Translations under genes and position numbers: made by a program
Source: Candidatus Woesearchaeota archaeon
GTDB taxonomy: Archaea > Nanobdellota > Nanobdellia > Pacearchaeales > GW2011-AR1
NCBI GenBank assembly: GCA_964547875.1
Contig: CAZJPE010000005.1
Span: 27,543-91,542 of the forward strand
DNA length: 64,000 bases
Direction of reading: 5' to 3'
Part shown: positions 2,876-53,066 of the stretch, piece by piece
Layout of the letters: every line of letters starts with the position of its first letter
How positions within the stretch are numbered: the stretch's first letter is position 1
The notes under the pieces: model-generated
What the model saw: only the letters and a program-made list of their open reading frames with translations
What the model was told of the DNA's origin: nothing
Databases searched by the model: none

Positions 2876-3577
2876 TTAATTCTCACTTTTACTCAAACTT
2901 AAATCTTTTATCTCCTCACTTTCATCCAATTTAACCTCACTTTTCTCGTTTTTTTCTTCTTTTCTGTTTTTTTTAACTCTCACTTTTGCGTATTTTGCAA
3001 ACTTTTCCCTTATTTCTACAGGTATAAACACTCTTTTTTTCCCATTTTTTTCAATAATCTCTTCAATCAGACCTTCACTTTTCTGTTTTATGGCATTAAT
3101 TTGTCCTCTTACTGTAGCTCTCTCTTTCCCCAAAAGAAGAGCAAGATCCTCATAACTTAGCTTCATCTCATTATTCAAAAGAGCCATAACAACTAGCCTT
3201 TCACTAGAACTTAATTCCTTCAAAATTCCATAAAAATTAGCTGTTTGAACAGGTGTTTGAACAGCTTTTTGAACACCTTCAACAGCTGTTTGTTTGTCTA
3301 AAACAGCTAATTTTCTAAACAGCTGTTTGCTTTTCATACTCTCATTCACTAAATTAATCGTCTCTCTCAAGCCCTCTATCTCCTCTTTTATCGTCGATAA
3401 ATCCCGCCGTAGCAAAAAAACAACATCAAACAGCTGTTTATCCCGCTCATCAAGGTGTTTAACCCACCTTCCAACATCATTCATGTCTTTTTTTACTTCA
3501 GAAAAGCCTTTTTTAGTTTCTTCCTCAAGTCTTTTTGCCCTCTTTCCAAAAAACCAATCAAACATGAATTTATACAA
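2876..3577 (-). CDS. Coiled-coil protein with C-terminal HTH (putative transcription regulator). Contains an internal (QxAV)n tandem repeat.
   Basis: 233 aa. C-terminal LSSSERLVVMALLNNEMKLSYEDLALLLGKERATVRGQINAIKQK is HTH-like. Convergent and architecturally similar to 2018-2725. Confidence 0.5.
   Translation of the reverse strand: MYKFMFDWFFGKRAKRLEEETKKGFSEVKKDMNDVGRWVKHLDERDKQLFDVVFLLRRDLSTIKEEIEGLRETINLVNESMKSKQLFRKLAVLDKQTAVEGVQKAVQTPVQTANFYGILKELSSSERLVVMALLNNEMKLSYEDLALLLGKERATVRGQINAIKQKSEGLIEEIIEKNGKKRVFIPVEIREKFAKYAKVRVKKNRKEEKNEKSEVKLDESEEIKDLSLSKSEN
3235..3330. repeat. Coding tandem repeat of a 12-bp unit built on the palindrome AACAGCTGTT. It encodes (Q-T/K-A/P-V)n in the minus-strand protein.
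   Basis: agctgtttgaac / aggtgtttgaac / agctttttgaac / aacagctgtttg / aaacagctaatt / aaacagctgtttg. Minus-strand translation is ...QTAVEGVQKAVQTPVQTA... Confidence 0.7.
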
Positions 3578-3904: not shown

Positions 3905-4264
3905 ATGGCAAATACACAAAAAACCTTTGCACTGATTTTAGGCATAGTATTGCTTCTCGTTGGCATAATTGGATTTATCAACAATCCTTTAGTAGGCGAT
4001 AACAGATATTTTGGAACAAATACCTTTCAAGACATACTGCATCTAATAGCAGGCGCAATAGGCGTCTATGTCGGAACAAAAGGAAGGGGCCCAACATACA
4101 ATTCAACAATAGGATGGATTGGCATTGTTTTAGGCATTCTTGGATTTATTCCAGGAATAAAAGGCCTGCTGCTTAATTGGTTTAATATAAACACAGAGAT
4201 AAGCGTTTTACACGTAGTAATAGGGATTGTTGCGCTGGCAGTCTATTACAAAGCAAGCAAGTAA
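3905..4264 (+). CDS. Small integral membrane protein (3-4 TM helices).
   Basis: Highly hydrophobic and Gly-rich (ILGIVLLLVGIIGFINNP..., IGWIGIVLGILGFIPGIKG). RBS-like aggaggt lies 8 nt upstream. Confidence 0.5.
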   Translation: MANTQKTFALILGIVLLLVGIIGFINNPLVGDNRYFGTNTFQDILHLIAGAIGVYVGTKGRGPTYNSTIGWIGIVLGILGFIPGIKGLLLNWFNINTEISVLHVVIGIVALAVYYKASK

Positions 4265-4293
4265 ATAATAAGCCATCTTTTTTCTTCTTTTTT

Positions 4294-4509
4294 ATGAATT
4301 TTAAACTTCTTTTCTTAATAGGCTCGATCCTAACATTCTTAGGCCTTTTCTGGATGCTCCTTCCTCACGCTTTTCACGATAAAATCATAGAGAATCAGCA
4401 CATTATCCACATTATTCAAGGCCTAATTCCAACATTACTAGGCCTAATCATGATGGTAAATTCAGAAAATAAGCTAAAATATCTAAGCAAAAACAAAAAC
4501 TTCAAATAA
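4294..4509 (+). CDS. Small membrane protein (2 TM).
   Basis: 71 aa, hydrophobic segments. Tandem with 3905-4264. Confidence 0.35.
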   Translation: MNFKLLFLIGSILTFLGLFWMLLPHAFHDKIIENQHIIHIIQGLIPTLLGLIMMVNSENKLKYLSKNKNFK

Positions 4510-4572
4510 AGTTATCTCACATGAATTTATACACATAAAAAACCGAAAAAACCCCAAATTTTCTCCCAATAT

Positions 4573-4627
4573 CAAAAACATTAGCCACAATAATTCAAGG
4601 CACGAAGTGCCGTCCGCGCCCGACAAA
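4573..4627. repeat. Copy A of a 53-nt conserved element with a perfect GGCAC-GAA-GTGCC hairpin.
   Basis: caaaaacattagccacaataattcaaggcacgaagtgccgtccgcgcccgaca. A second copy at 5288-5340 has one mismatch. Confidence 0.8.
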
Positions 4628-4658
4628 CAATTATAAACGATATCTATCTAATAATTTT

Positions 4659-4949
4659 ATAAACAACATTATCTTTGAAATCGTCGATAAAACAGGAAAA
4701 AAGATAATACTGACTAAAGAAAGATGGACACATATAAGGCAAAAACATGGACTTATTGAAAATCCAGAAGAGATAGAGCAAACACTTACTAATCCAATAA
4801 AAATCATTTTTATCGAGGAGAAAAACAAAACATATTTCTATAACTATTTCAAACATAAGCACAAATCCAGATTTTTAAAAGTTATAGTTAAATATATAAA
4901 TAATCAAGGTTATGTAAAATCAGCGTATTTCACAAGAAGCATAAAATGA
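4659..4949 (+). CDS. DUF4258-like (toxin-like) protein. The ORF has no canonical start codon: it is either a pseudogene or uses a non-canonical start.
   Basis: Frame is open from 4539. It encodes ...IILTKERWTHIRQKHGLIENPEEIEQTLTNPIKIIF..., and its TGA overlaps the ATG of the DUF2283 gene (ATGA at 4946-4949). There is no in-frame ATG, GTG or TTG. It is not in the ORF table. Confidence 0.3.
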   Translation: MNNIIFEIVDKTGKKIILTKERWTHIRQKHGLIENPEEIEQTLTNPIKIIFIEEKNKTYFYNYFKHKHKSRFLKVIVKYINNQGYVKSAYFTRSIK

Positions 4950-5191
4950 AAGGAAAAATGGAAATTTACTATGACGAAGAATTAGACTACTTAGAGATAT
5001 TCGTACAGAATCCTCCTCCAAACTACGGCGAGGATATCGAAGAAGATATAACTCTTTTTAGAGACGAAAATACAGACGAAGTTGTAGGAATAGGGATCCA
5101 AGAATTCAAAGAAAAAACAAAAAACCTCAAAGACATTAAATTACAACTCCCCTTTGAAATCAACTTTCTCCAATTACCTATAAATAAATAA
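4946..5191 (+). CDS. DUF2283-family small protein (antitoxin-like partner of DUF4258).
   Basis: MEIYYDEELDYLEIF...DEVVGIGIQEF matches the DUF2283 signature (YD-E-D-LYI). Start overlaps the upstream DUF4258-like ORF. Confidence 0.5.
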   Translation: MKGKMEIYYDEELDYLEIFVQNPPPNYGEDIEEDITLFRDENTDEVVGIGIQEFKEKTKNLKDIKLQLPFEINFLQLPINK

Positions 5192-5194
5192 TAT

Positions 5195-5265
5195 AGCTAA
5201 AACTTCCTCACATCTCCAACAACTTTTAGCATAAGCAAAAAGTTCGGGTTAAACGAAAGATTTTT
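5195..5265. repeat. Intergenic cassette-boundary repeat, family R1, full copy 1.
   Basis: agctaaaacttcctcacatctccaacaacttttagcataagcaaaaagttcgggttaaacgaaagattttt. Confidence 0.8.
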
Positions 5266-5287
5266 AAATAAATCTATCCCTCAGTCC

Positions 5288-5340
5288 CAAAAACATTAGC
5301 CACAATAATTCAAGGCACGAAGTGCCGTCCACGCCCGACA
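5288..5340. repeat. Copy B of the 53-nt hairpin element.
   Basis: caaaaacattagccacaataattcaaggcacgaagtgccgtccacgcccgaca. It lies 48 nt upstream of the ATG at 5388. Confidence 0.8.
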
Positions 5341-5387
5341 GCATTAAGCAAGCAAAGATTTATTAATAATAAAACCCAGAAAAAAGT

Positions 5388-5633
5388 ATGGAACAAAAAC
5401 ACATAACTTTAGAAAAAATATATTATGCAATACAAAATATACAGAGAGAACTAAGCAACATTAAAGAAAAGCTAGATTGGGAAACAGACTTTACAGAAGA
5501 GGAAAATAAGGAATTTATTGAAGGGACAAGAGAGGCATGGAAAGAAATAGACGAAGGGAAATATACCACTTACAATTCTCCGGAAGAATTTCTATCTACA
5601 TTAAAAGAGAATGATAATAAAAGAAAGCGATAA
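5388..5633 (+). CDS. Putative type II antitoxin (paired with the RelE/ParE-like toxin downstream).
   Basis: 81 aa acidic protein. The C-terminal motif AWKEIDEGKYTTYNSPEEF is shared with orphan ORF 47643-47837. Overlaps the toxin gene by 23 nt. Confidence 0.5.
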   Translation: MEQKHITLEKIYYAIQNIQRELSNIKEKLDWETDFTEEENKEFIEGTREAWKEIDEGKYTTYNSPEEFLSTLKENDNKRKR

Positions 5634-5853
5634 ATTCAAAAGTATTAAATCTAAAATAGATAAAAGTTATCTCACCAAGCTTGAAAAATTAATTAAGAAG
5701 ATTATAAACAATCCAGAAATCGGCAAACCAATGATGCACGAAAGAAAAGGCACAAAAGAAGTTTATCTTCCACCATTTAGGCTTTCTTATTCTTATGATA
5801 GTTCTGCAAATATATTAATCTTTCTCGATATTTATCATAAAAAACATCAATGA
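5611..5853 (+). CDS. RelE/ParE-family toxin.
   Basis: 80 aa. KLIKKIINNPEIGKPMMHERKGTKEVYLPPFRLSYSYDSSANILIFLDIYHKK has the typical RelE/ParE fold pattern and gene-pair arrangement. Confidence 0.55.
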   Translation: MIIKESDKFKSIKSKIDKSYLTKLEKLIKKIINNPEIGKPMMHERKGTKEVYLPPFRLSYSYDSSANILIFLDIYHKKHQ

Positions 5854-5874
5854 GTAAAAATAACAAAATCTCTC

Positions 5875-5913
5875 AGCTAAAACTTCCTCACATCTCCAAC
5901 AACTTTTAGCATA
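5875..5913. repeat. Family R1 repeat, copy 2 (5' half).
   Basis: agctaaaacttcctcacatctccaacaacttttagcata is identical to 5195-5233. Confidence 0.8.
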
Positions 5914-5979
5914 CAATAATTAAGGCGTAAAGCACTATGAAACCGAAAAATATAAATACTTCTGTATCATTATTGTATC

Positions 5980-6195
5980 ATGGAAATAGAAACAACAACA
6001 AGAAAATGGGGAAATTCAATAGCTATAATCATACCCGCAAGCATAGTTGAACAGCAAAAACTAAAAGAAAACGAAGAAGTTATAGTAAAAGTTGATAAAA
6101 AGAAAGTCAAAGCAGGAGAATTATTTGGATTCCTCAAAGACTGGAAAAGGTCAACAGACGATATATTAAAAGAGGCAGATAGAGGATGGGATTAA
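5980..6195 (+). CDS. AbrB/MazE/SpoVT-type antitoxin (VapB-like).
   Basis: RKWGNSIAIIIPASIVEQQKLKENEEVIVKV is a swapped-hairpin AbrB motif. Overlaps the PIN gene by 10 nt. Confidence 0.6.
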   Translation: MEIETTTRKWGNSIAIIIPASIVEQQKLKENEEVIVKVDKKKVKAGELFGFLKDWKRSTDDILKEADRGWD

Positions 6196-6557
6196 AATAC
6201 TTCTTTGATAGCTATGCAATAATTGAGATACTTAAAGAAAATCCAAAATATTCAATTTATACTTCAGAAATTGCAGTTTTAACTATCTTTAATCTAGCTG
6301 AAATATATTGGTCTGCCTTACTTGATTATGAAGAAGACAAAGCAAATATTATTTTTGACACATATAAGAAGGCAGTCATCGAAATTGACGACGATACCCT
6401 CAAAGAAGCTATAAAATTCAGAAAAGAGCACAAAAAGCAAGATCTCTCCTACGCAGATTGCGTAGGATATGTCTATGCCAAACGCAATAATCTAAAATTT
6501 CTTACAGGCGATAACAAATTTGAAAACCTTCCCTTCGTAGAATTCGTGAAAAAATAG
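6186..6557 (+). CDS. PIN-domain toxin (VapC-like).
   Basis: 123 aa. Begins YFFDSYAIIEIL (PIN N-terminal acidic-residue motif). Its position downstream of an AbrB antitoxin supports the call. Confidence 0.5.
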   Translation: MGLKYFFDSYAIIEILKENPKYSIYTSEIAVLTIFNLAEIYWSALLDYEEDKANIIFDTYKKAVIEIDDDTLKEAIKFRKEHKKQDLSYADCVGYVYAKRNNLKFLTGDNKFENLPFVEFVKK

Positions 6558-6558
6558 A

Positions 6559-6603
6559 AACTTTTTGCATAGCAAAAAGTTCGGGTTAAACGAAAGATTT
6601 AAA
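6559..6603. repeat. Family R1 repeat, 3' half copy.
   Basis: actttttgcatagcaaaaagttcgggttaaacgaaagattt matches the 3' half of 5195-5265. Confidence 0.7.
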
Positions 6604-6626
6604 AATAAGAATTATCCCCATTTACT

Positions 6627-7061
6627 ATGAGAATAAAATCATTGAAGGCATTAACACTAGCAAGCTTACTTTGGTGTCAGGGTTGTGAAGAATCAAAAAA
6701 ACAACCAGATTTAATAGGATTAGTAAGTATTTCTGGCATTCCAGTCGCCCCCCAACTTGAGACTTCTAATTATGGAGGTTCATTATCTTTTGTTATAAAG
6801 AACAGAGATGGCTCCATGTTAGCAACACTATCTCATTTTCAACCTCATTATATTGACAAAAAAACTTTGGGTCAGATTAGCTCTCTTTTACACTCCGAAA
6901 TTTCAGATGGAGACGAAGACATTATAGAATGTAAAGGGAATTTTAACAAAGATGGAGTTTTTGAAGTCAAATACATAAAAGGAAATGATTTTGGAACTTA
7001 TTATACTCATCTTAACGGAGATCTTTATCTTATTGGCATCAAGAGTTTCAAATCCCCCTAA
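6627..7061 (+). CDS. Secreted protein or lipoprotein (signal peptide, Cys near the cleavage region).
   Basis: N-terminal MRIKSLKALTLASLLWCQGCEE. 144 aa. Confidence 0.4.
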   Translation: MRIKSLKALTLASLLWCQGCEESKKQPDLIGLVSISGIPVAPQLETSNYGGSLSFVIKNRDGSMLATLSHFQPHYIDKKTLGQISSLLHSEISDGDEDIIECKGNFNKDGVFEVKYIKGNDFGTYYTHLNGDLYLIGIKSFKSP

Positions 7062-7112
7062 AACTTCGCACAAGCACCATTAAGAGTACTTTTGAGAGTT
7101 CTAAAGTGTTAA
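7057..7112. repeat. Degenerate family R1-like repeat.
   Basis: cctaaaacttcgcacaagcacc...gttaaaacgaa. Partial match to the R1 ends. Confidence 0.4.
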
Positions 7113-7157
7113 AACGAATCTAATTAATTTTATATAGAGTTTATACCCAATTCTCTT

Positions 7158-7451
7158 ATGGTTTTTCAAAATATTTTTATAGATTTAGGCAGTTCTATGA
7201 TAACAGGTATTCTTGGAGGATTAGTAATTGTTTGGTTTTTTAATGGAATTCATTATTTTGACAAACAACTTAAATTTAAAACAAGATATGGAAAATACTC
7301 CTTTATTTTTTATTTACTATATATTTTTCTATTATTTATTTCATCTGCTGTTTTTTTATTTACGCGCATCGATAGTTTTTCTCTAGTGGCCTTTGGGATA
7401 GGGATTGCTTTCGAGATTATAATTTTGATTTGGCGTCCAAAATTGGGCTAA
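7158..7451 (+). CDS. Small membrane protein (3 TM).
   Basis: 97 aa, strongly hydrophobic. Confidence 0.35.
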   Translation: MVFQNIFIDLGSSMITGILGGLVIVWFFNGIHYFDKQLKFKTRYGKYSFIFYLLYIFLLFISSAVFLFTRIDSFSLVAFGIGIAFEIIILIWRPKLG

Positions 7452-7460
7452 ATCCTTCAA

Positions 7461-7520
7461 GCTAAAACCTTTTCTCGTCTCCAAAAACTTTCAGCACAAG
7501 AATAAAGTTCATTTAAATTA
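7461..7520. repeat. Family R1 repeat, divergent full-length copy.
   Basis: gctaaaaccttttctcgtctccaaaaactttcagcacaagaataaagttcatttaaatt is colinear with 5196-5255 (gctaaaac-ttcctcacatctccaacaacttttagcataagcaaaaagttcgggttaaacg). Confidence 0.65.
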
Positions 7521-7525
7521 TCGGA

Positions 7526-7798
7526 TTAGTAAATATTATCATGATGGTCAAAATCAACAAAAAGGATAAATTTCCCCACCAAATCTACTTTAAACGTCAA
7601 AACAAAGTGCTTATCAATATGGACACGCTTAAATTCTTTCATATCATATCGTAGATTTTTATAATGTTGAATTGAGACTTCGTCAGAGCCAACAATCTCT
7701 TTAATCTTTTTATTTATTATCTCAACTTTTTTCTTATCTTTCTTTATCAGTTTTGATATTTTAACCTTTAACTCATCACTTAAGCCAAAGTCAAACAT
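7526..7798 (-). CDS. RelE/ParE-superfamily toxin.
   Basis: 90 aa. ...YKNLRYDMKEFKRVHIDKHFVLTFKVDLVGKFILFVDFDHHDNIY. Follows its antitoxin with a 0-nt gap. Confidence 0.5.
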   Translation of the reverse strand: MFDFGLSDELKVKISKLIKKDKKKVEIINKKIKEIVGSDEVSIQHYKNLRYDMKEFKRVHIDKHFVLTFKVDLVGKFILFVDFDHHDNIY

Positions 7799-8086
7799 TT
7801 ATACCTCACAAAGCCTATCTAATTCTTCAAAACTCATCTTTCTATGCCCATATTTTTCTAAATGTTTATTAGCAATATCAATAATCTTTTTCACATATTC
7901 TTCATTAGCCTCTTTTTCAACAATTTCATCCCCATATATTTCAGCAAACTTATTTATGGCTTCAGATTTATCATTCAATCCATATTTCGCTTTAATAACG
8001 GATAATACTCTATTTGCATAATTATTCAATCGTATTCTTGCAGAGATTTCTTTTTCCATAGCACTTAGTATGCACATTATATACAC
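7799..8086 (-). CDS. Putative antitoxin. The real start is probably an internal Met at 8077 or 8059, because 8086 is a GTG.
   Basis: 95 aa. ISARIRLNNYANRVLSVIKAKYGL is RHH/antitoxin-like. Immediately upstream of the toxin. Confidence 0.45.
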   Translation of the reverse strand: MYIMCILSAMEKEISARIRLNNYANRVLSVIKAKYGLNDKSEAINKFAEIYGDEIVEKEANEEYVKKIIDIANKHLEKYGHRKMSFEELDRLCEV

Positions 8087-8105
8087 ACAGATTATTTAAA
8101 TCTTT
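8087..8105. promoter_or_regulatory. TATA-containing motif ACAGATTATTTAAATCTTT, shared with the TrmB gene promoter (26206-26223).
   Basis: 18-19 nt identical at both sites, just upstream of minus-strand gene starts. Contains TTTAAATA (TATA-box-like) within the imperfect palindrome AGATT-N-AATCT. Confidence 0.4.
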
Positions 8106-8276
8106 CTACAGAAATCTTGCTAGAACAATAATTCAAGTTGAGGAAAATTACATATTTTCTTGAGACTCTTCAGCTTGTTCTTCTTTAGGATGTTCCTTTT
8201 CTTTCTGCGCTTTCTGTTTTCCTTTTTATGCCAGTTATTAAAAAATGCCATATATAAATTTATGGTTTCAAAAAAT

Positions 8277-8663
8277 CTACTCGCACATCGGCTTATAAGC
8301 TTCCCAATACGCTCCCAATAAATACGCATTCAAAAGCGTAAAAATAAATCCCATATACCATCCCTTAAAGTCAAGAAATAAATGGAAAAGAAGGATATTT
8401 AGAGTAAATGGAGCAATAAGCACTGCTCCAAAAGGAGCACATTTATTTATTACAAAAAGCAAGCCTACAATAACAAATACAAGCGACATTACAGGAACCA
8501 TATATCCTGTTGCAAATAAAGCTGTTAAAAATGCCATTGCCTCTTCATTAAATTGAGGATTGCCAGGCAAAAACATGAAAAATCCATTCAAACCAAAAAT
8601 AATAAGCGCAATGCCAAATATAATTCTCACAACCTTTGTAAATGTAATCTCTCTCATGGACAT
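8277..8663 (-). CDS. Integral membrane protein (4 TM).
   Basis: 128 aa, hydrophobic throughout. Confidence 0.45.
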   Translation of the reverse strand: MSMREITFTKVVRIIFGIALIIFGLNGFFMFLPGNPQFNEEAMAFLTALFATGYMVPVMSLVFVIVGLLFVINKCAPFGAVLIAPFTLNILLFHLFLDFKGWYMGFIFTLLNAYLLGAYWEAYKPMCE

Positions 8664-9162: not shown

Positions 9163-9369
9163 TTATTTTTCAATTATTTTCTTTAATATCTTTCGTCTTC
9201 TTTGCCTGTCTTTCTCCATAGAGGCAATTTCTTTCTCATAATAATCTACTAATTCTCTTTTACCTTCTTCAAATGTGATTTCTTTTTTGCCCCCATGAAG
9301 TTCTATCTGTTTTTCTATAGAGATAATGCTTTTCTCAGGTCTTTTTCTTCTTTTTGCCATATTCCTCAA
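9163..9369 (-). CDS. Small highly basic/acidic protein, module partner of the AbrB-NTase gene. Paralog of 28288-28473.
   Basis: 68 aa, KRRKRPEK..., conserved VDYYEKEI. Start overlaps the 3' end of 9335-10129 by 35 nt. Confidence 0.45.
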   Translation of the reverse strand: MRNMAKRRKRPEKSIISIEKQIELHGGKKEITFEEGKRELVDYYEKEIASMEKDRQRRRKILKKIIEK

Positions 9370-10129
9370 TCTCCCTTTCTAATAAACCGACTAATTTTTC
9401 AGCTAATGAAATATCAATCTTCTCTTTTATTTTTTTATTATCCCTAATTAAACTATAAATTCTATATAGCTTTTCATATTCTGCTTTAGTTATTCCTAGC
9501 ATCGTAATTAACCATCTCTCAAATTCTCTATTTGAATATTTCTTTTCATTCAATATAGACCTAATGATATAAAGCCCTCTTAATCTCAATAAGGATGAAT
9601 AAATAACTGCTTTTGATTTTAACATTGAGCTATCTAATTTATCCATTTCAATCAGTTCCTTATTTATCCCAATCATTTTTTTAGAATCTTTGAAATATAA
9701 TTTAAAAGAATTTATATTTAGTTTAATAAAATTTTTCAATTCCTCCAAAAGCCCCTTATTTAGAATAACTTTAGCGTCTATCAACTTAGAATAAATTATT
9801 TCTGGGCGCTCTTTCAGAACAGAAACAATGGCATTTAATGTAGTAATAATCACCTCATATTTTCCCATTTTTATCTTTTTATTAATATTATTAGTTATAA
9901 CTAGTATATCTATGTCACTTTCTTTAGTTTTTTCTCCCCGCGCATAGCTTCCAACAAGATAAACTCCAATAATATCTTCAAAATATGGCTCAAGAATTTC
10001 TAAAACATCTTTTTTTATGTCTAATGGTTTTTTAACTAACTCAACTTTCGCTTTTCCATTCAGCCATTCCCTAGGAAGAATGACCCCTGCAGAATTTCCT
10101 ATTCTAACAATTTGTTTTATTAATTTCAT
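9335..10129 (-). CDS. AbrB/SpoVT-like N-terminal domain fused to a minimal nucleotidyltransferase domain plus a C-terminal helical domain. Paralog of 28448-29260.
   Basis: VRIGNSAGVILPREWL (AbrB swapped hairpin). GVYLVGSYARGEKTKESDIDILV (Pol-beta-type NTase GS...DxD). Confidence 0.6.
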   Translation of the reverse strand: MKLIKQIVRIGNSAGVILPREWLNGKAKVELVKKPLDIKKDVLEILEPYFEDIIGVYLVGSYARGEKTKESDIDILVITNNINKKIKMGKYEVIITTLNAIVSVLKERPEIIYSKLIDAKVILNKGLLEELKNFIKLNINSFKLYFKDSKKMIGINKELIEMDKLDSSMLKSKAVIYSSLLRLRGLYIIRSILNEKKYSNREFERWLITMLGITKAEYEKLYRIYSLIRDNKKIKEKIDISLAEKLVGLLEREIEEYGKKKKKT

Positions 10130-28287: not shown

Positions 28288-28473
28288 TTATCTTTCAAGT
28301 TGCCTTTCTTTTCTTCTCTTAACTTTATCTAAATTAGAAATTTCCTTCTCATAATAATCTGCTCTTTCTATGTTATCCTCTTCTATTGCAATTTCTCTTT
28401 TTCTTTTATGAATATTTATCTGCTCTTTCAAAGACGCAATTCCTTTCTCAAGCCTTTTTGATCTTTTCACCAT
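28288..28473 (-). CDS. Small basic protein, partner of the AbrB-NTase gene. Paralog of 9163-9369.
   Basis: 61 aa. ADYYEKEIS is conserved with 9163-9369 (VDYYEKEIA). Overlaps the 3' end of 28448-29260 by 26 nt. Confidence 0.45.
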   Translation of the reverse strand: MVKRSKRLEKGIASLKEQINIHKRKREIAIEEDNIERADYYEKEISNLDKVKRRKERQLER

Positions 28474-29260
28474 ATTTTTTTATTTCCTCTCGAAGAAGGT
28501 TAATTAATTTTTCAATTAATTCTATTCTAACTTTTTCTTTAATTTTTTTATTATTTTTTATGCTTTTATAAAAATCATAAATTTTATTAATCTCTTCCTC
28601 ACTCAATTCAGTTTTATAAATTAGCCACTTCCTAAATTCGTTATTAAAATATTTTTTATTTTTTAAAATACAATTCATCATATAAATGCCTCTTAATCTT
28701 AACAATAAGGAATAAATAATTTCTTTAGATTCGAGATTTTTGCCTTTTATTCTATCTAATTCAACAATCTTTTTGTTAATGCCCATTATTCTTTTGCATT
28801 CTTTAATATAATTACTAAAATTTTTTAAAGAAATATTTATAGAAATAAGTTCTTCCAATAACGACTTATTAATTATAGGTTTAGCTTCTAATAAACTAGG
28901 CAATATCATAATAGGACTTTTTTTAATTGTACTTTTTATGCTTTTAAGGGCATATATATCAATATCATAAATTCCAGAGATTATGTGTTTCCTGATATTT
29001 TTTGAGATAGCAATAATATCTATGTCGGAATCTGCTCGCTGTTCGTTTCTTGCATAACTCCCTACTAAATAAATGCCGATAATGTCGTTTAAATAAGGAT
29101 CAAGAATGTTTAAAATCTCATTTTTAATCTCGTTAGTTCTGTCTATCAAAATAATCTTGACTTGCTTTCCAAGCCATTCTCTAGGCAATAAAACTCCAGC
29201 ACCATTGCCCCATCTAACAACATTTAACATTTCTTCCATGTTTAAACATAGTTTAAACAT
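28448..29260 (-). CDS. AbrB/SpoVT-like plus nucleotidyltransferase fusion protein. Paralog of 9335-10129.
   Basis: VVRWGNGAGVLLPREWL. GIYLVGSYARNEQRADSDIDIIAI. About 45% identity to 9335-10129 over the full length. Confidence 0.6.
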   Translation of the reverse strand: MFKLCLNMEEMLNVVRWGNGAGVLLPREWLGKQVKIILIDRTNEIKNEILNILDPYLNDIIGIYLVGSYARNEQRADSDIDIIAISKNIRKHIISGIYDIDIYALKSIKSTIKKSPIMILPSLLEAKPIINKSLLEELISINISLKNFSNYIKECKRIMGINKKIVELDRIKGKNLESKEIIYSLLLRLRGIYMMNCILKNKKYFNNEFRKWLIYKTELSEEEINKIYDFYKSIKNNKKIKEKVRIELIEKLINLLREEIKKYGEKIKKA

Positions 29261-31213: not shown

Positions 31214-32077
31214 ATGGCAAGAATTAAATCTGAATTAGTGCTTCTTGAGCCAATCATAGAAAAATATTCATTTGCAAGAATCCTTGACGCAGACGAAAAA
31301 AGGGAATTATATCAAGAAGTAAATGAAATTGTAGAAAGAGATTACGAAAACATTCCGGCTTTTCCAGCTTATTGGAAATTTAATGAAGAGACAGGGAAAA
31401 TAAATGGCTCAAATCTTCCTATACTTATTCTTGCTAACAAAATTCTCGCCAAGAAAAACCAGAGAACACTTACATTCGTAGAAGGAATTAAATTAGATAA
31501 AGCTAAAAAATTAAGCAATGAAGTTTATAGGGATTTTGGCTTAGTAGTTTATAGTCCAGGAGAGCCAAACAAGGAAATAGCTGAATTGCTTGTTAAAGAA
31601 GCAAATAGAAGAAATTGGGAATTGCCAGTAATAGCCCATCCATCTGCTTTAGAAATTCCTTCAAGAAAGGCGAATAATAATTATAGAATAGACATACTAT
31701 TTTCAGATAATGATTCTTTAATCATTTCAGGAGAAGAAGCAAGAGAAGTTCTAAAAGAATTCTACGCTCATAATTCTGGCGTTTGCAGGCTGGACCGCGG
31801 CGGGCTCGGCTTCTGGGATGCCGGCTGGGACCTCTTGGCCAGCTCTTATGCTGACGGTCGGGTGGATTGGATTCGTGGCGAAGCCACGCACGAAAATTTA
31901 GAGAGAGAATTATTCGCTGAAATTGAAAGAAGTGCACAAAAATCACCTTATTCAACAAAAGAAGCATTAAAAATGTATAAAGTTGTTGAAGAAATAAGAA
32001 AAGGCGATGTAAAAATTTCTGATTTAGAATCAAGATTATCTCAAGTTTCAAGTTTTCTTGAAAATCTCTCTAAATAA
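31214..32077 (+). CDS. Hypothetical protein, paralog A of a recently duplicated pair. It carries a GC-rich hypervariable segment (candidate DGR variable region).
   Basis: 287 aa. About 88% nucleotide identity to 52236-53066 over roughly 560 nt upstream of the island. The island encodes ...NSGVCRLDRGGLGFWDAGWDLLASSYADGRVDWIRGEAT... Confidence 0.6.
   Translation: MARIKSELVLLEPIIEKYSFARILDADEKRELYQEVNEIVERDYENIPAFPAYWKFNEETGKINGSNLPILILANKILAKKNQRTLTFVEGIKLDKAKKLSNEVYRDFGLVVYSPGEPNKEIAELLVKEANRRNWELPVIAHPSALEIPSRKANNNYRIDILFSDNDSLIISGEEAREVLKEFYAHNSGVCRLDRGGLGFWDAGWDLLASSYADGRVDWIRGEATHENLERELFAEIERSAQKSPYSTKEALKMYKVVEEIRKGDVKISDLESRLSQVSSFLENLSK
31790..31891 (+). other. Hypervariable GC-rich island A (candidate DGR variable region).
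   Basis: 102 nt at over 65% GC, with GC-rich third codon positions, inside an AT-rich gene. It differs from island B at about 30 positions, almost all in codon positions 1-2. Confidence 0.5.
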
Positions 32078-52235: not shown

Positions 52236-53066
52236 ATGGTAGAAACAGCATCTCAAGACATTGTATTACTTGAGCCAATAATAGAAAAATATTCAGTTGC
52301 AAGACATTTAGGCTCTGACGAACAAAGAAGTCTTTATGAAGGTATAAATGAAATTGTAGAAAGAGATTATAAAAATGCTCCAGCTTTTCAAACTCGTTGG
52401 GATTTCAATGAGCAAACAGGCGAAATAAATGGCTCTAATATCTTTAGAGCAATTCTTGCCAACAAAATTCTCGCAGCAAAAGGAGAAAGAACACTTACTT
52501 ATGAAGAAGGAATGAAATTAGATAAAGATAAAAAATTAAGCAATAAAGTTTACAGAGATTTTGGCTTAGCAGTCCATAGTTTAAGAGAACCAAACAAGGA
52601 AATAGCTGAATTGCTTGTTAAAGAAGCAGAAAAAAGAAGTCTGGAATTGCCAGTATTAGTTCATCCTTCTGCTTTAGAAATTTCTTCAAGAAACGTTAAT
52701 AATAAATATGGGATAAACGTACTCTTTTCAGATAATGACTCTTTAATCGTTTCAGGAGAAGAAGCAAGAGAAGCTCTAAAAAAGTTTCATGCTTATAATT
52801 CTGGCGTTTGCAGGCCGTGTCGCTACTGGGACGGCGACTGGGTTGCCGGCTGGGTTGACTTGGCTGGCTCCAGTGCTTGCGGCAGGGTGGATTGGGTTCG
52901 TGGCGAAGCCACGCGTGAAAATTTTCAGCAAGATGATTTAATGAAAAAGGAAAGCGAACTTTACACTTCTAAACAAATTATACAGGCAGCAAGCGAAATA
53001 GATTTAAATCTTTTAAGAGAGAACAAATTAGAAGACATCTTACTTAGAAAATTAAGGAATAAATAA
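52236..53066 (+). CDS. Hypothetical protein, paralog B of the duplicated pair, carrying the second hypervariable GC-rich segment.
   Basis: 276 aa. ...NSGVCRPCRYWDGDWVAGWVDLAGSSACGRVDWVRGEAT... Similarity to paralog A ends abruptly at the 3' edge of the island. Confidence 0.6.
   Translation: MVETASQDIVLLEPIIEKYSVARHLGSDEQRSLYEGINEIVERDYKNAPAFQTRWDFNEQTGEINGSNIFRAILANKILAAKGERTLTYEEGMKLDKDKKLSNKVYRDFGLAVHSLREPNKEIAELLVKEAEKRSLELPVLVHPSALEISSRNVNNKYGINVLFSDNDSLIVSGEEAREALKKFHAYNSGVCRPCRYWDGDWVAGWVDLAGSSACGRVDWVRGEATRENFQQDDLMKKESELYTSKQIIQAASEIDLNLLRENKLEDILLRKLRNK
52815..52916 (+). other. Hypervariable GC-rich island B (candidate DGR variable region).
   Basis: Same length and register as 31790-31891. 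The flanks are near-identical, but inside the island 14 of 34 codons differ, mostly NNC/NNT codons changed at positions 1 and 2. Confidence 0.5.

Follow-up and report, generated by a model that had tools for sequence, protein, structure and literature searches.

The question raised by positions 4.5 to 8.2 kb of a 64-kb stretch of contig CAZJPE010000005.1 (assembly GCA_964547875.1, Candidatus Woesearchaeota archaeon), referred to below as the window, is which kind of system lies behind an array of short gene units, several of them toxin-antitoxin pairs, that alternate with intergenic repeats. An initial annotation of the window read these units as integron cassettes separated by attC-like sites. 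The six short gene units were confirmed as real, and comparison with related genomes revealed that the array is a conserved, locus-specific and hypervariable hotspot. It contains two repeat families, termed A (the repeat of the initial annotation) and B, together with one 28-bp dyad that resembles dif; the coordinates of the array features are collected in Table 1. The explanation favoured here, to which we give about an even chance of being correct, is a lineage-specific hotspot where accessory genes have gathered around a Xer-type recombination module on the chromosome of a DPANN archaeon (Woesearchaeota/Pacearchaeota), and in which the mobility of the units would be mediated by Xer. The window is AT-rich (~33% GC) and archaeal, encoding FttA/aCPSF1, an archaeal CCA-adding enzyme, Mre11/Rad50, PCNA and primase, and its nearest relatives are assemblies labelled Woesearchaeota or Pacearchaeota.

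Homologues of the product of a neighbouring helix-turn-helix (HTH) gene, hereafter the anchor gene, were used to retrieve 27 related Woesearchaeota/Pacearchaeota loci, in all of which the gene lies beside the same hotspot, while the RelE/YafQ-type toxin of the array retrieved further contigs. The related contigs and loci set against the window carry L-numbers (L002, L004 ... L042); their DNA was analysed as 20-kb loci, and the survey of dyads took in 549 kb. Array content differs between related genomes at repeat boundaries, as comparison of the window with L002, L004, L008 and others reveals. In L008 both flanks are syntenic with the window, but they enclose just A-B-(121-aa gene)-A-toxin-antitoxin, as against five more units in the window. 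The same elements enclose an HNH protein, an AbrB-like protein and others in L004, a ParE unit is bracketed by A-like repeats in L019, and in L002 the place of the 144-aa gene of the window (unit 4) is taken by an unrelated 170-aa gene, which abuts the left arm of the dyad. Several units, namely the RelE/YafQ pair, a 59-aa AbrB-like gene, the HNH gene and ParE, recur in different orders, and on both sides of the dyad the small genes differ across genomes (toxin-antitoxin pairs, small membrane proteins, an HNH protein). Unit 2 was found elsewhere as a lone 524-bp assembled contig, and exact-protein look-ups of the cassette proteins returned only short contigs that break at the repeats; this breakage of public assemblies at A and B fits true repetition. 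Two contigs carrying the archaeal locus, L027 and L028, are filed under the bacterial labels 'Patescibacteria group bacterium' and 'Bacillota bacterium', probably through mis-binning.

The putative Xer-type component of the locus is centred on positions 7057-7112, which had been described as a degenerate copy of the repeat. Colinearity with A was indeed observed at the head and tail of this segment, but its core is a distinct and unique 28-bp dyad (7063-7090) that displays both the structure of dif, with two imperfect inverted 11-bp arms around a 6-bp centre, and a resemblance to it in sequence. A weight matrix trained on other genomes alone scores 7063-7090 at 25.4 bits, compared with 11.3 bits for the next best site in the 64 kb and at most 18.4 bits in 20 shuffles. 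One orthologous dyad per locus was identified in about 20 related loci, six of them outside the training set, and full dif-like sites number one in the window and one per 20-kb related locus. Complementarity between the arms is 6/11 in the window and 9-10/11 in the orthologous sites, while distant relatives present near-perfect 11-6-11 dyads (e.g. AGTTCGTACAA GATATA TTATACGAACT). When aligned with published proteobacterial dif (e.g. ACTTCGCATAA TGTATA TTATGTTAAAT), the window dyad matches 17 of 28 positions overall and 10 of 11 in the left (XerC) arm. The chance level, taken from random 28-mers of window sequence, averages 8.3 of 28 positions, with no random left arm above 9/11. One arm of the L034 site is identical to the Neisseria XerC arm over all 11 positions. 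The dyad is located 0.76-1.9 kb upstream of the anchor gene in relatives versus 3.5 kb in the window, where extra units intervene. There are strong indications that 7063-7090 is the probable target of the XerA-type recombinase encoded at the locus in relatives, as either the chromosomal dif or a dedicated site, and the dyad is a candidate dif for a lineage in which none has been reported.

A second, weaker 28-bp dyad, AGTTCGTTTAT TCTAAT TATTCCGAACT, extends from 2849 to 2876 and overlaps the stop codon of the anchor HTH gene. It is present at the same place in the closest relative, L017, and a similar dyad lies ~240 nt downstream of the gene in L019. The left arm of 2849-2876 is identical at 10 of 11 positions to box 3 of A (described below), and the two dyads, 2849-2876 and 7063-7090, bracket the HTH gene and units 1-4. 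Past the stop codon of the anchor gene the motif AAAGTGAGAGTT(AA), which resembles the TTTGAGAGTTCTAAA tail of the dif-like element, recurs in L019, L021, L025, L026, L031 and L034, and in the window at ~2800-2870.

No tyrosine recombinase is encoded in the 64 kb, in agreement with the initial annotation, which had noted the lack of an integrase and proposed a search for an IntI-like or XerA-like enzyme. In relatives a recombinase gene does belong to the locus, although it is of the XerA type rather than IntI. This XerA-family gene starts 39-48 nt past the dyad in four relatives (L024, L028, L032 and L042) and lies further away, with other genes between, in L026, L037, L034 and L038. The recombinases of the relatives pass the XerA equivalog NF040815 (236-265 bits, cutoff 220) and remain below the cutoff of the integron-integrase model TIGR02249 (~214-218 bits vs 265, with the match split in two); they do not have the IntI-specific insertion. 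The position of xerA directly past the dyad points to an ancestral order of anchor gene, dif-like site and xerA, and the locus would thus derive from a single-recombinase xer/dif module on both sides of which accessory genes were inserted. Modules of xerA and dif have been noted in some archaea (reviews; PMC2731167, PMC5357621). Two XerA-type genes (4202-5014 and 7636-8475), ~43% identical to each other, are present at the L024 locus, one adjoining the dif-like site and the other near a ribosomal-protein operon; of the two, one may have the housekeeping role while the other serves the array alone.

The positions of A given by the initial annotation were confirmed, shuffles predicting 0 matches and no further copy being present in the 64 kb. 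Within the window, GCTAAAACTTCCTCACATCTCCAACAACTTTTAGCATA is identical at 38 of 38 positions between 5196-5233 and 5876-5913, and AGCAAAAAGTTCGGGTTAAACGAAAGATTT at 30 of 30 between 5234-5263 and 6571-6600. The element comprises two direct repeats of ~12 nt (AAAACTTTCA...), ~21 nt apart, the second of which ends in AGCAYAA, followed by box 3, AGTTCG(N2-3)TTAA, which in 7 of 13 A copies lies exactly 6 nt past ...AGCAYAA. An nhmmer profile detected 1-4 copies per genome in 11 genomes, in a single orientation and within ~5 kb upstream of the HTH gene, and none outside the array zone in the window or the 20-kb related loci; the 23 non-redundant copies display a strong common sequence consensus. The core of A has 0 matches in species-representative genomes and 1 in metagenomes, which is L002, while the two matches in viral contigs lie inside coding sequence and were discarded as chance. 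The repeats are locus-specific in the window and in related loci, and not the genome-wide promoter or terminator elements that the initial annotation had named as a possible refutation. Copies orthologous to 7461-7520 adjoin the same toxin gene in L002, L004 and L008. Contrary to the earlier statement that a repeat follows every unit, no copy of A lies beyond unit 6. The reverse strand of most A copies (e.g. 5233-5198 and 7498-7463) holds an open reading frame of 8-11 codons, M-L-K-V/I-(F/L/V)-G/S-D/E-D/S-stop, in which the Leu codon varies in a synonymous-looking way (CTG, CTA, CTT, CTC); as a gene, this micro-ORF (MLKV[FLV]GD[DE]*) was judged unlikely, the TATA-like box lying only ~20 nt before the ATG with no ribosome-binding site.

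A second repeat family, B, had been overlooked. Its two copies in the window (4562-4625 and 5277-5340) are 91% identical over 64 nt. The general form of B is ...ACATTAGCCACAA, 6 nt, a GC palindrome (GGCGC-GAA-GCGCC) and then GTCCGCGCCCGACA. The fourth position of the palindrome covaries: the window has A-T there, L004 has C-G, and the pair is G-C elsewhere. Copies of B were found in ten genomes (the window and nine others), often 10-110 nt past an A, and the B pattern has 0 matches in viral contigs. B was also considered as a tRNA 3' fragment or a C/D or H/ACA RNA, but no such features were apparent by eye and neither Rfam nor ARAGORN gave a match. In L017 a tandem CAAACC(CAA) repeat follows B directly at the contig end (positions 1-50), so that the assembly of the closest relative breaks inside the array.

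The dyad, A and B have in common a left half-site followed by a 6-nt gap, after which they diverge (AAAACTT-CG-CACAA in the dyad, AAAACTTTCAGCAYAA in A and AAAACATTAGCCACAA in B, where ...GCCACAA is followed by 6 nt and then the palindrome). Box 3 of A (AGTTCGTTTAA) is, in addition, identical to a dyad arm at 10 of 11 positions, and the forward motif AGTTCG is 3.2-fold enriched in array zones (p=1e-4), with an orientation split of 19:8. In bacterial Xer-exploiting elements, sites keep the XerC arm while the other side diverges (review PMC5357621), and the common half-site and 6-nt gap, as in those degenerate sites, lead us to read A and B as putative recombinase-binding remnants or accessory sites. 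According to this proposal, Xer-dependent recombination in or close to the dyad would add, remove and rearrange units. A and B would be either traces of this process or sites that it uses, and B would have a second role as upstream promoter DNA for each unit. A and B were also scored as full dif-like sites, a candidacy rejected at weight-matrix scores below the noise level.

Several observations weigh against an Xer-based origin of the array. With just one full dyad in the array, the units lack the complete 28-bp sites that enclose every bacterial dif module. Within A, the half-sites are direct rather than inverted and cannot support normal tyrosine-recombinase catalysis, and the 6-nt gaps of A and B are unlike the central region of the dyad in the same genome. 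The 64-kb window has no xerA gene, and the XerA for any exchange would have to come from another part of the genome. Copies of A also follow conserved small membrane-protein genes (families F2, F9 and F16), which means that not every A marks a recent insertion, and neither a circular or excised form nor a near-identical strain pair differing by exactly one unit was found. Finally, every copy of B examined is followed within 0-12 nt by a TATA-like box and then a gene, a position that a purely regulatory role explains equally well.

That position introduces the main rival explanation, in which A and B would be lineage-specific regulatory modules, acting as operators, promoters or terminators to which a local regulator (e.g. 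the neighbouring HTH protein) binds, and the locus a set of co-regulated small genes. Differences between genomes would then have arisen by ordinary homologous recombination, duplication and deletion between modules, the dif-like site being a mere neighbour. Besides the location of B, several features of the locus suit a regulatory role: box 3 of A, or the sequence just past it, reads by eye as a transcription factor B recognition element (BRE) and TATA box ~25-30 nt before several starts; the ~21-nt spacing of the A direct repeats suits cooperative protein binding; the regulator-like HTH gene is the sole universally conserved neighbour; and the A/B fusion at 5876-5945 is explicable by deletion between TTAGC microhomologies. 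Regulation accounts less well for A at 7461-7520 and its orthologues, which lie between convergent genes with nothing downstream to drive, and for the half-site and 6-nt spacing common to A, B and the dyad. Moreover, the same flanks are found on unrelated genes in different genomes, and the A and B elements still align between genomes whose anchor proteins are only ~50% identical. On balance we consider a regulatory origin possible but rather unlikely.

The GC-rich hairpin or dyad conserved in B, with its one covarying pair, also brings into consideration small non-coding RNA genes, or non-autonomous mobile elements resembling miniature inverted-repeat transposable elements (MITEs) and spread by their own transposition. 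The TATA-like box at the end of the full A copy (5196-5271) is even suitably positioned for a transcript beginning in B copy 2, but no consistent promoter was found upstream of B in other genomes, covariation of the palindrome is equally expected of a dimeric binding site, and the only Rfam matches were sub-threshold and due to chance. No structure is conserved in A, neither terminal inverted repeats nor target duplications were observed, and all copies are confined to one locus and one orientation. An RNA or MITE-like nature of A and B is, in our view, improbable.

The alternation of cassettes and repeats and the toxin-antitoxin cargo prompted the integron reading, which takes the repeats for attC sites that fold as single strands and are recombined by an IntI whose gene lies elsewhere. 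Two further points agree with it: repeat copies within one genome are more alike than copies across genomes, and Ghaly et al. 2022 described integrons and integrase-less attC clusters with toxin-antitoxin cassettes in nine archaeal phyla including Nanoarchaeota (PMC9668308), so that the remark in the initial annotation that such arrays are essentially undescribed in archaea is outdated. An attC site is expected to form an imperfect end-to-end hairpin in which R'' (RYYYAAC) pairs with R' (GTTRRRY) and L'' with L', leaving extrahelical bases, and most of the control attCs that were folded do pair end to end. The repeats of the array, in contrast, display weak, local DNA folds of -2 to -9 kcal/mol that do not join the two ends and are mostly no better than shuffles, with the exception of a 10-bp hairpin at 6559-6581 (z=-4.8), and RNAalifold identified no consensus structure for the 23 A copies on either strand. 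Conservation only in architecture, as in attC, had been proposed, and the opposite was seen, the sequence being conserved and the fold not. A covariance model was built from 10 experimentally tested attC (aadA7 and nine archaeal sites, including one from Nanoarchaeota; Ghaly et al. 2022 supplement, PMC9668308); with filters off and E<=10 it found no match in 4.5-8.2 kb, three weak matches (E>1) elsewhere in the window and none in 13 related loci. Taken with the XerA-type locus recombinases of the relatives, which do not carry the IntI-specific insertion, these results refute the integron reading as far as the tools used reach, and a true integron array without its integrase is very unlikely indeed. 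Integron finders that rely on the attC fold will miss arrays of this kind.

Xer/dif modules, Xer-exploiting elements and dif modules are all known already, and each resembles the hotspot in part. Integrative mobile elements exploiting Xer (IMEX) at bacterial dif (CTX and TLC phages, the gonococcal genetic island, EludIMEX-1; PMC5357621) likewise present accessory DNA in tandem beside a dif-type site and elements without a recombinase of their own, and their junction sites keep one recombinase-binding arm while the other side has diverged, a state to which A and B may correspond. The array has units on both sides of the dyad, and A and B keep a half-site like the left arm and the 6-nt gap, but without a match to the central region. 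It further differs from IMEX in its tiny units (0.3-0.6 kb, one or two genes), its archaeal host with a single XerA-type enzyme and the direct orientation of the A half-sites. The plasmid dif (pdif) modules of Acinetobacter are similarly short, often toxin-antitoxin modules delimited by Xer-related sites, and are shuffled between replicons in dependence on host Xer proteins (PMC6449649, PMC13141974, PMC12907356). Every pdif module has a complete 28-bp site on either side, with orientations that alternate, an arrangement absent from the array, which has one complete dyad and half-site repeats that all point one way. An 11-6-11 dyad with dif-like arms is common to the locus and to XerS-difSL, XerH-difH and some archaeal xerA/dif modules (PMC2731167, PMC5357621), and four relatives have the recombinase gene immediately next to the site, as in those single-recombinase systems; the site of the window, in contrast, has no adjoining recombinase gene and sits within a variable array that includes satellite half-site repeats. 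Chromosomal integrons and integrase-less attC clusters (PMC9668308) resemble the locus in the platform of recombinase and primary site (in the relatives) and in short units of one orientation rich in toxin-antitoxin genes. The locus differs from them in having no attC fold and no IntI, in repeats conserved in sequence and in a promoter-like sequence for each unit.

Table 1. Features of the array and its surroundings in the 64-kb window.
Feature	Position	Strand	Description
Anchor gene	2876-3577	minus	233-aa coiled-coil protein with C-terminal HTH, transcribed away from the array
B copy 1	4562-4625	plus	half-site-like ACATTAGCCACAA, 6 nt, GC palindrome GGCAC-GAA-GTGCC, GTCCGCGCCCGACA, TATA-like box
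Unit 1	4659-5191	plus	PBECR2/DUF4258-like gene and DUF2283-like gene; weak Pfam matches
A, full copy	5196-5271	plus	direct repeat 1, direct repeat 2 ending AGCATAA, 6-nt gap, box 3 (AGTTCGGGTTAA); nhmmer E=5e-14
B copy 2	5277-5340	plus	91% identical to copy 1; followed by TATA-like box and ATG at 5388
Unit 2	5388-5853	plus	DUF2683-like antitoxin (weak match) and ParE-family toxin (E=1e-6)
A/B hybrid	5876-5945	plus	5' 38 nt of A (= 5196-5233) joined at ...AGCATA/CAATAATT... (slash, junction) to decayed B; E=4e-8
B remnant	5914-5945	plus	decayed, within the A/B hybrid
Unit 3	5980-6557	plus	MazE/AbrB-type antitoxin (E=7e-9) and PIN toxin (E=2e-10)
Partial A	6559-6608	plus	10-bp hairpin and box 3, 30 nt = 5234-5263, then BRE/TATA-like box
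Unit 4	6627-7061	plus	orphan 144-aa protein, lipoprotein-like N-terminus, no family found
Candidate dif-like Xer core site	7063-7090	plus	ACTTCGCACAA GCACCA TTAAGAGTACT (11-6-11), within conserved element 7052-7112
Unit 5	7158-7451	plus	orphan 97-aa membrane protein; homologue at matching position in L002
A, diverged full copy	7461-7520	plus	...AGCACAA, gap GAATAA, box 3 AGTTCATTTAA; colinear, 63% ungapped; nhmmer E=1e-14
Unit 6	7526-8086	minus	RelE/YafQ-family toxin (7526-7798) and its antitoxin
B-like fragment	8125-8140	plus	ACAATAATTCAAG; seen directly in the sequence

The functional labels given to the units by the initial annotation hold broadly. ParE, MazE/AbrB with PIN, and RelE/YafQ were confirmed, while the matches to DUF4258/PBECR2, DUF2283 and DUF2683 are weak. 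ParE and the MazE/AbrB and PIN pair score above the Pfam cutoffs, and the toxin at 7526-7798 has 1516 DPANN homologues, several of which were named RelE or YafQ by their sources, all in keeping with type II toxin-antitoxin systems; a toxin-antitoxin role for the DUF4258/DUF2283 pair is weakly supported. No ATG, GTG or TTG start is present in the frame of the first gene of unit 1 (4659-4948), which is either a pseudogene or starts at ATA, ATT or ATC. The anchor HTH protein belongs to no Pfam or NCBIfam family and has no significant PDB match, giving only weak HTH hits. Beyond the array, paralogous nucleotidyltransferase genes (NTP_transf_2/Polbeta; 9335-10129 and 28448-29260) have in common a 50-nt stretch (9392-9441 and 28505-28554). 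A related gene is also present in the L026 array, so the variable region of the window probably reaches ~11.4 kb. A 300-nt direct repeat of 78% identity (31244-31543 and 52269-52568) lies within two paralogous genes of unknown function (31214-32077 and 52236-53066).

The literature searched described no DPANN array in which one- and two-gene units surround a dif-like site and are accompanied by half-site repeat families of their own, nor did any paper in it combine DPANN, XerA and dif. A more far-reaching form of the Xer-based explanation, which we put forward tentatively and hold to be doubtful, is that the locus may be this clade's integron-like gene-capture platform, built on the machinery of chromosome resolution: a XerA-type recombinase, a dif-like primary site and, bounded by half-site-based A and B recombination sites, cassettes of one or two genes, which would be inserted, excised and reshuffled by Xer catalysis. 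If true, the cassette-array principle would have been invented a second time, independently, and Archaea would have their first example of Xer-exploiting elements, so that the gene mobility of this kind in Vibrio, Neisseria and Acinetobacter would extend to them. Woesearchaeota and Pacearchaeota have tiny genomes and depend on hosts, and little is understood of the ways in which they acquire and swap accessory genes; a Xer/dif-based hotspot with its own half-site repeats would offer a concrete, testable mechanism. The array around a Xer/dif-type site suggests an undescribed route by which archaea collect accessory genes.

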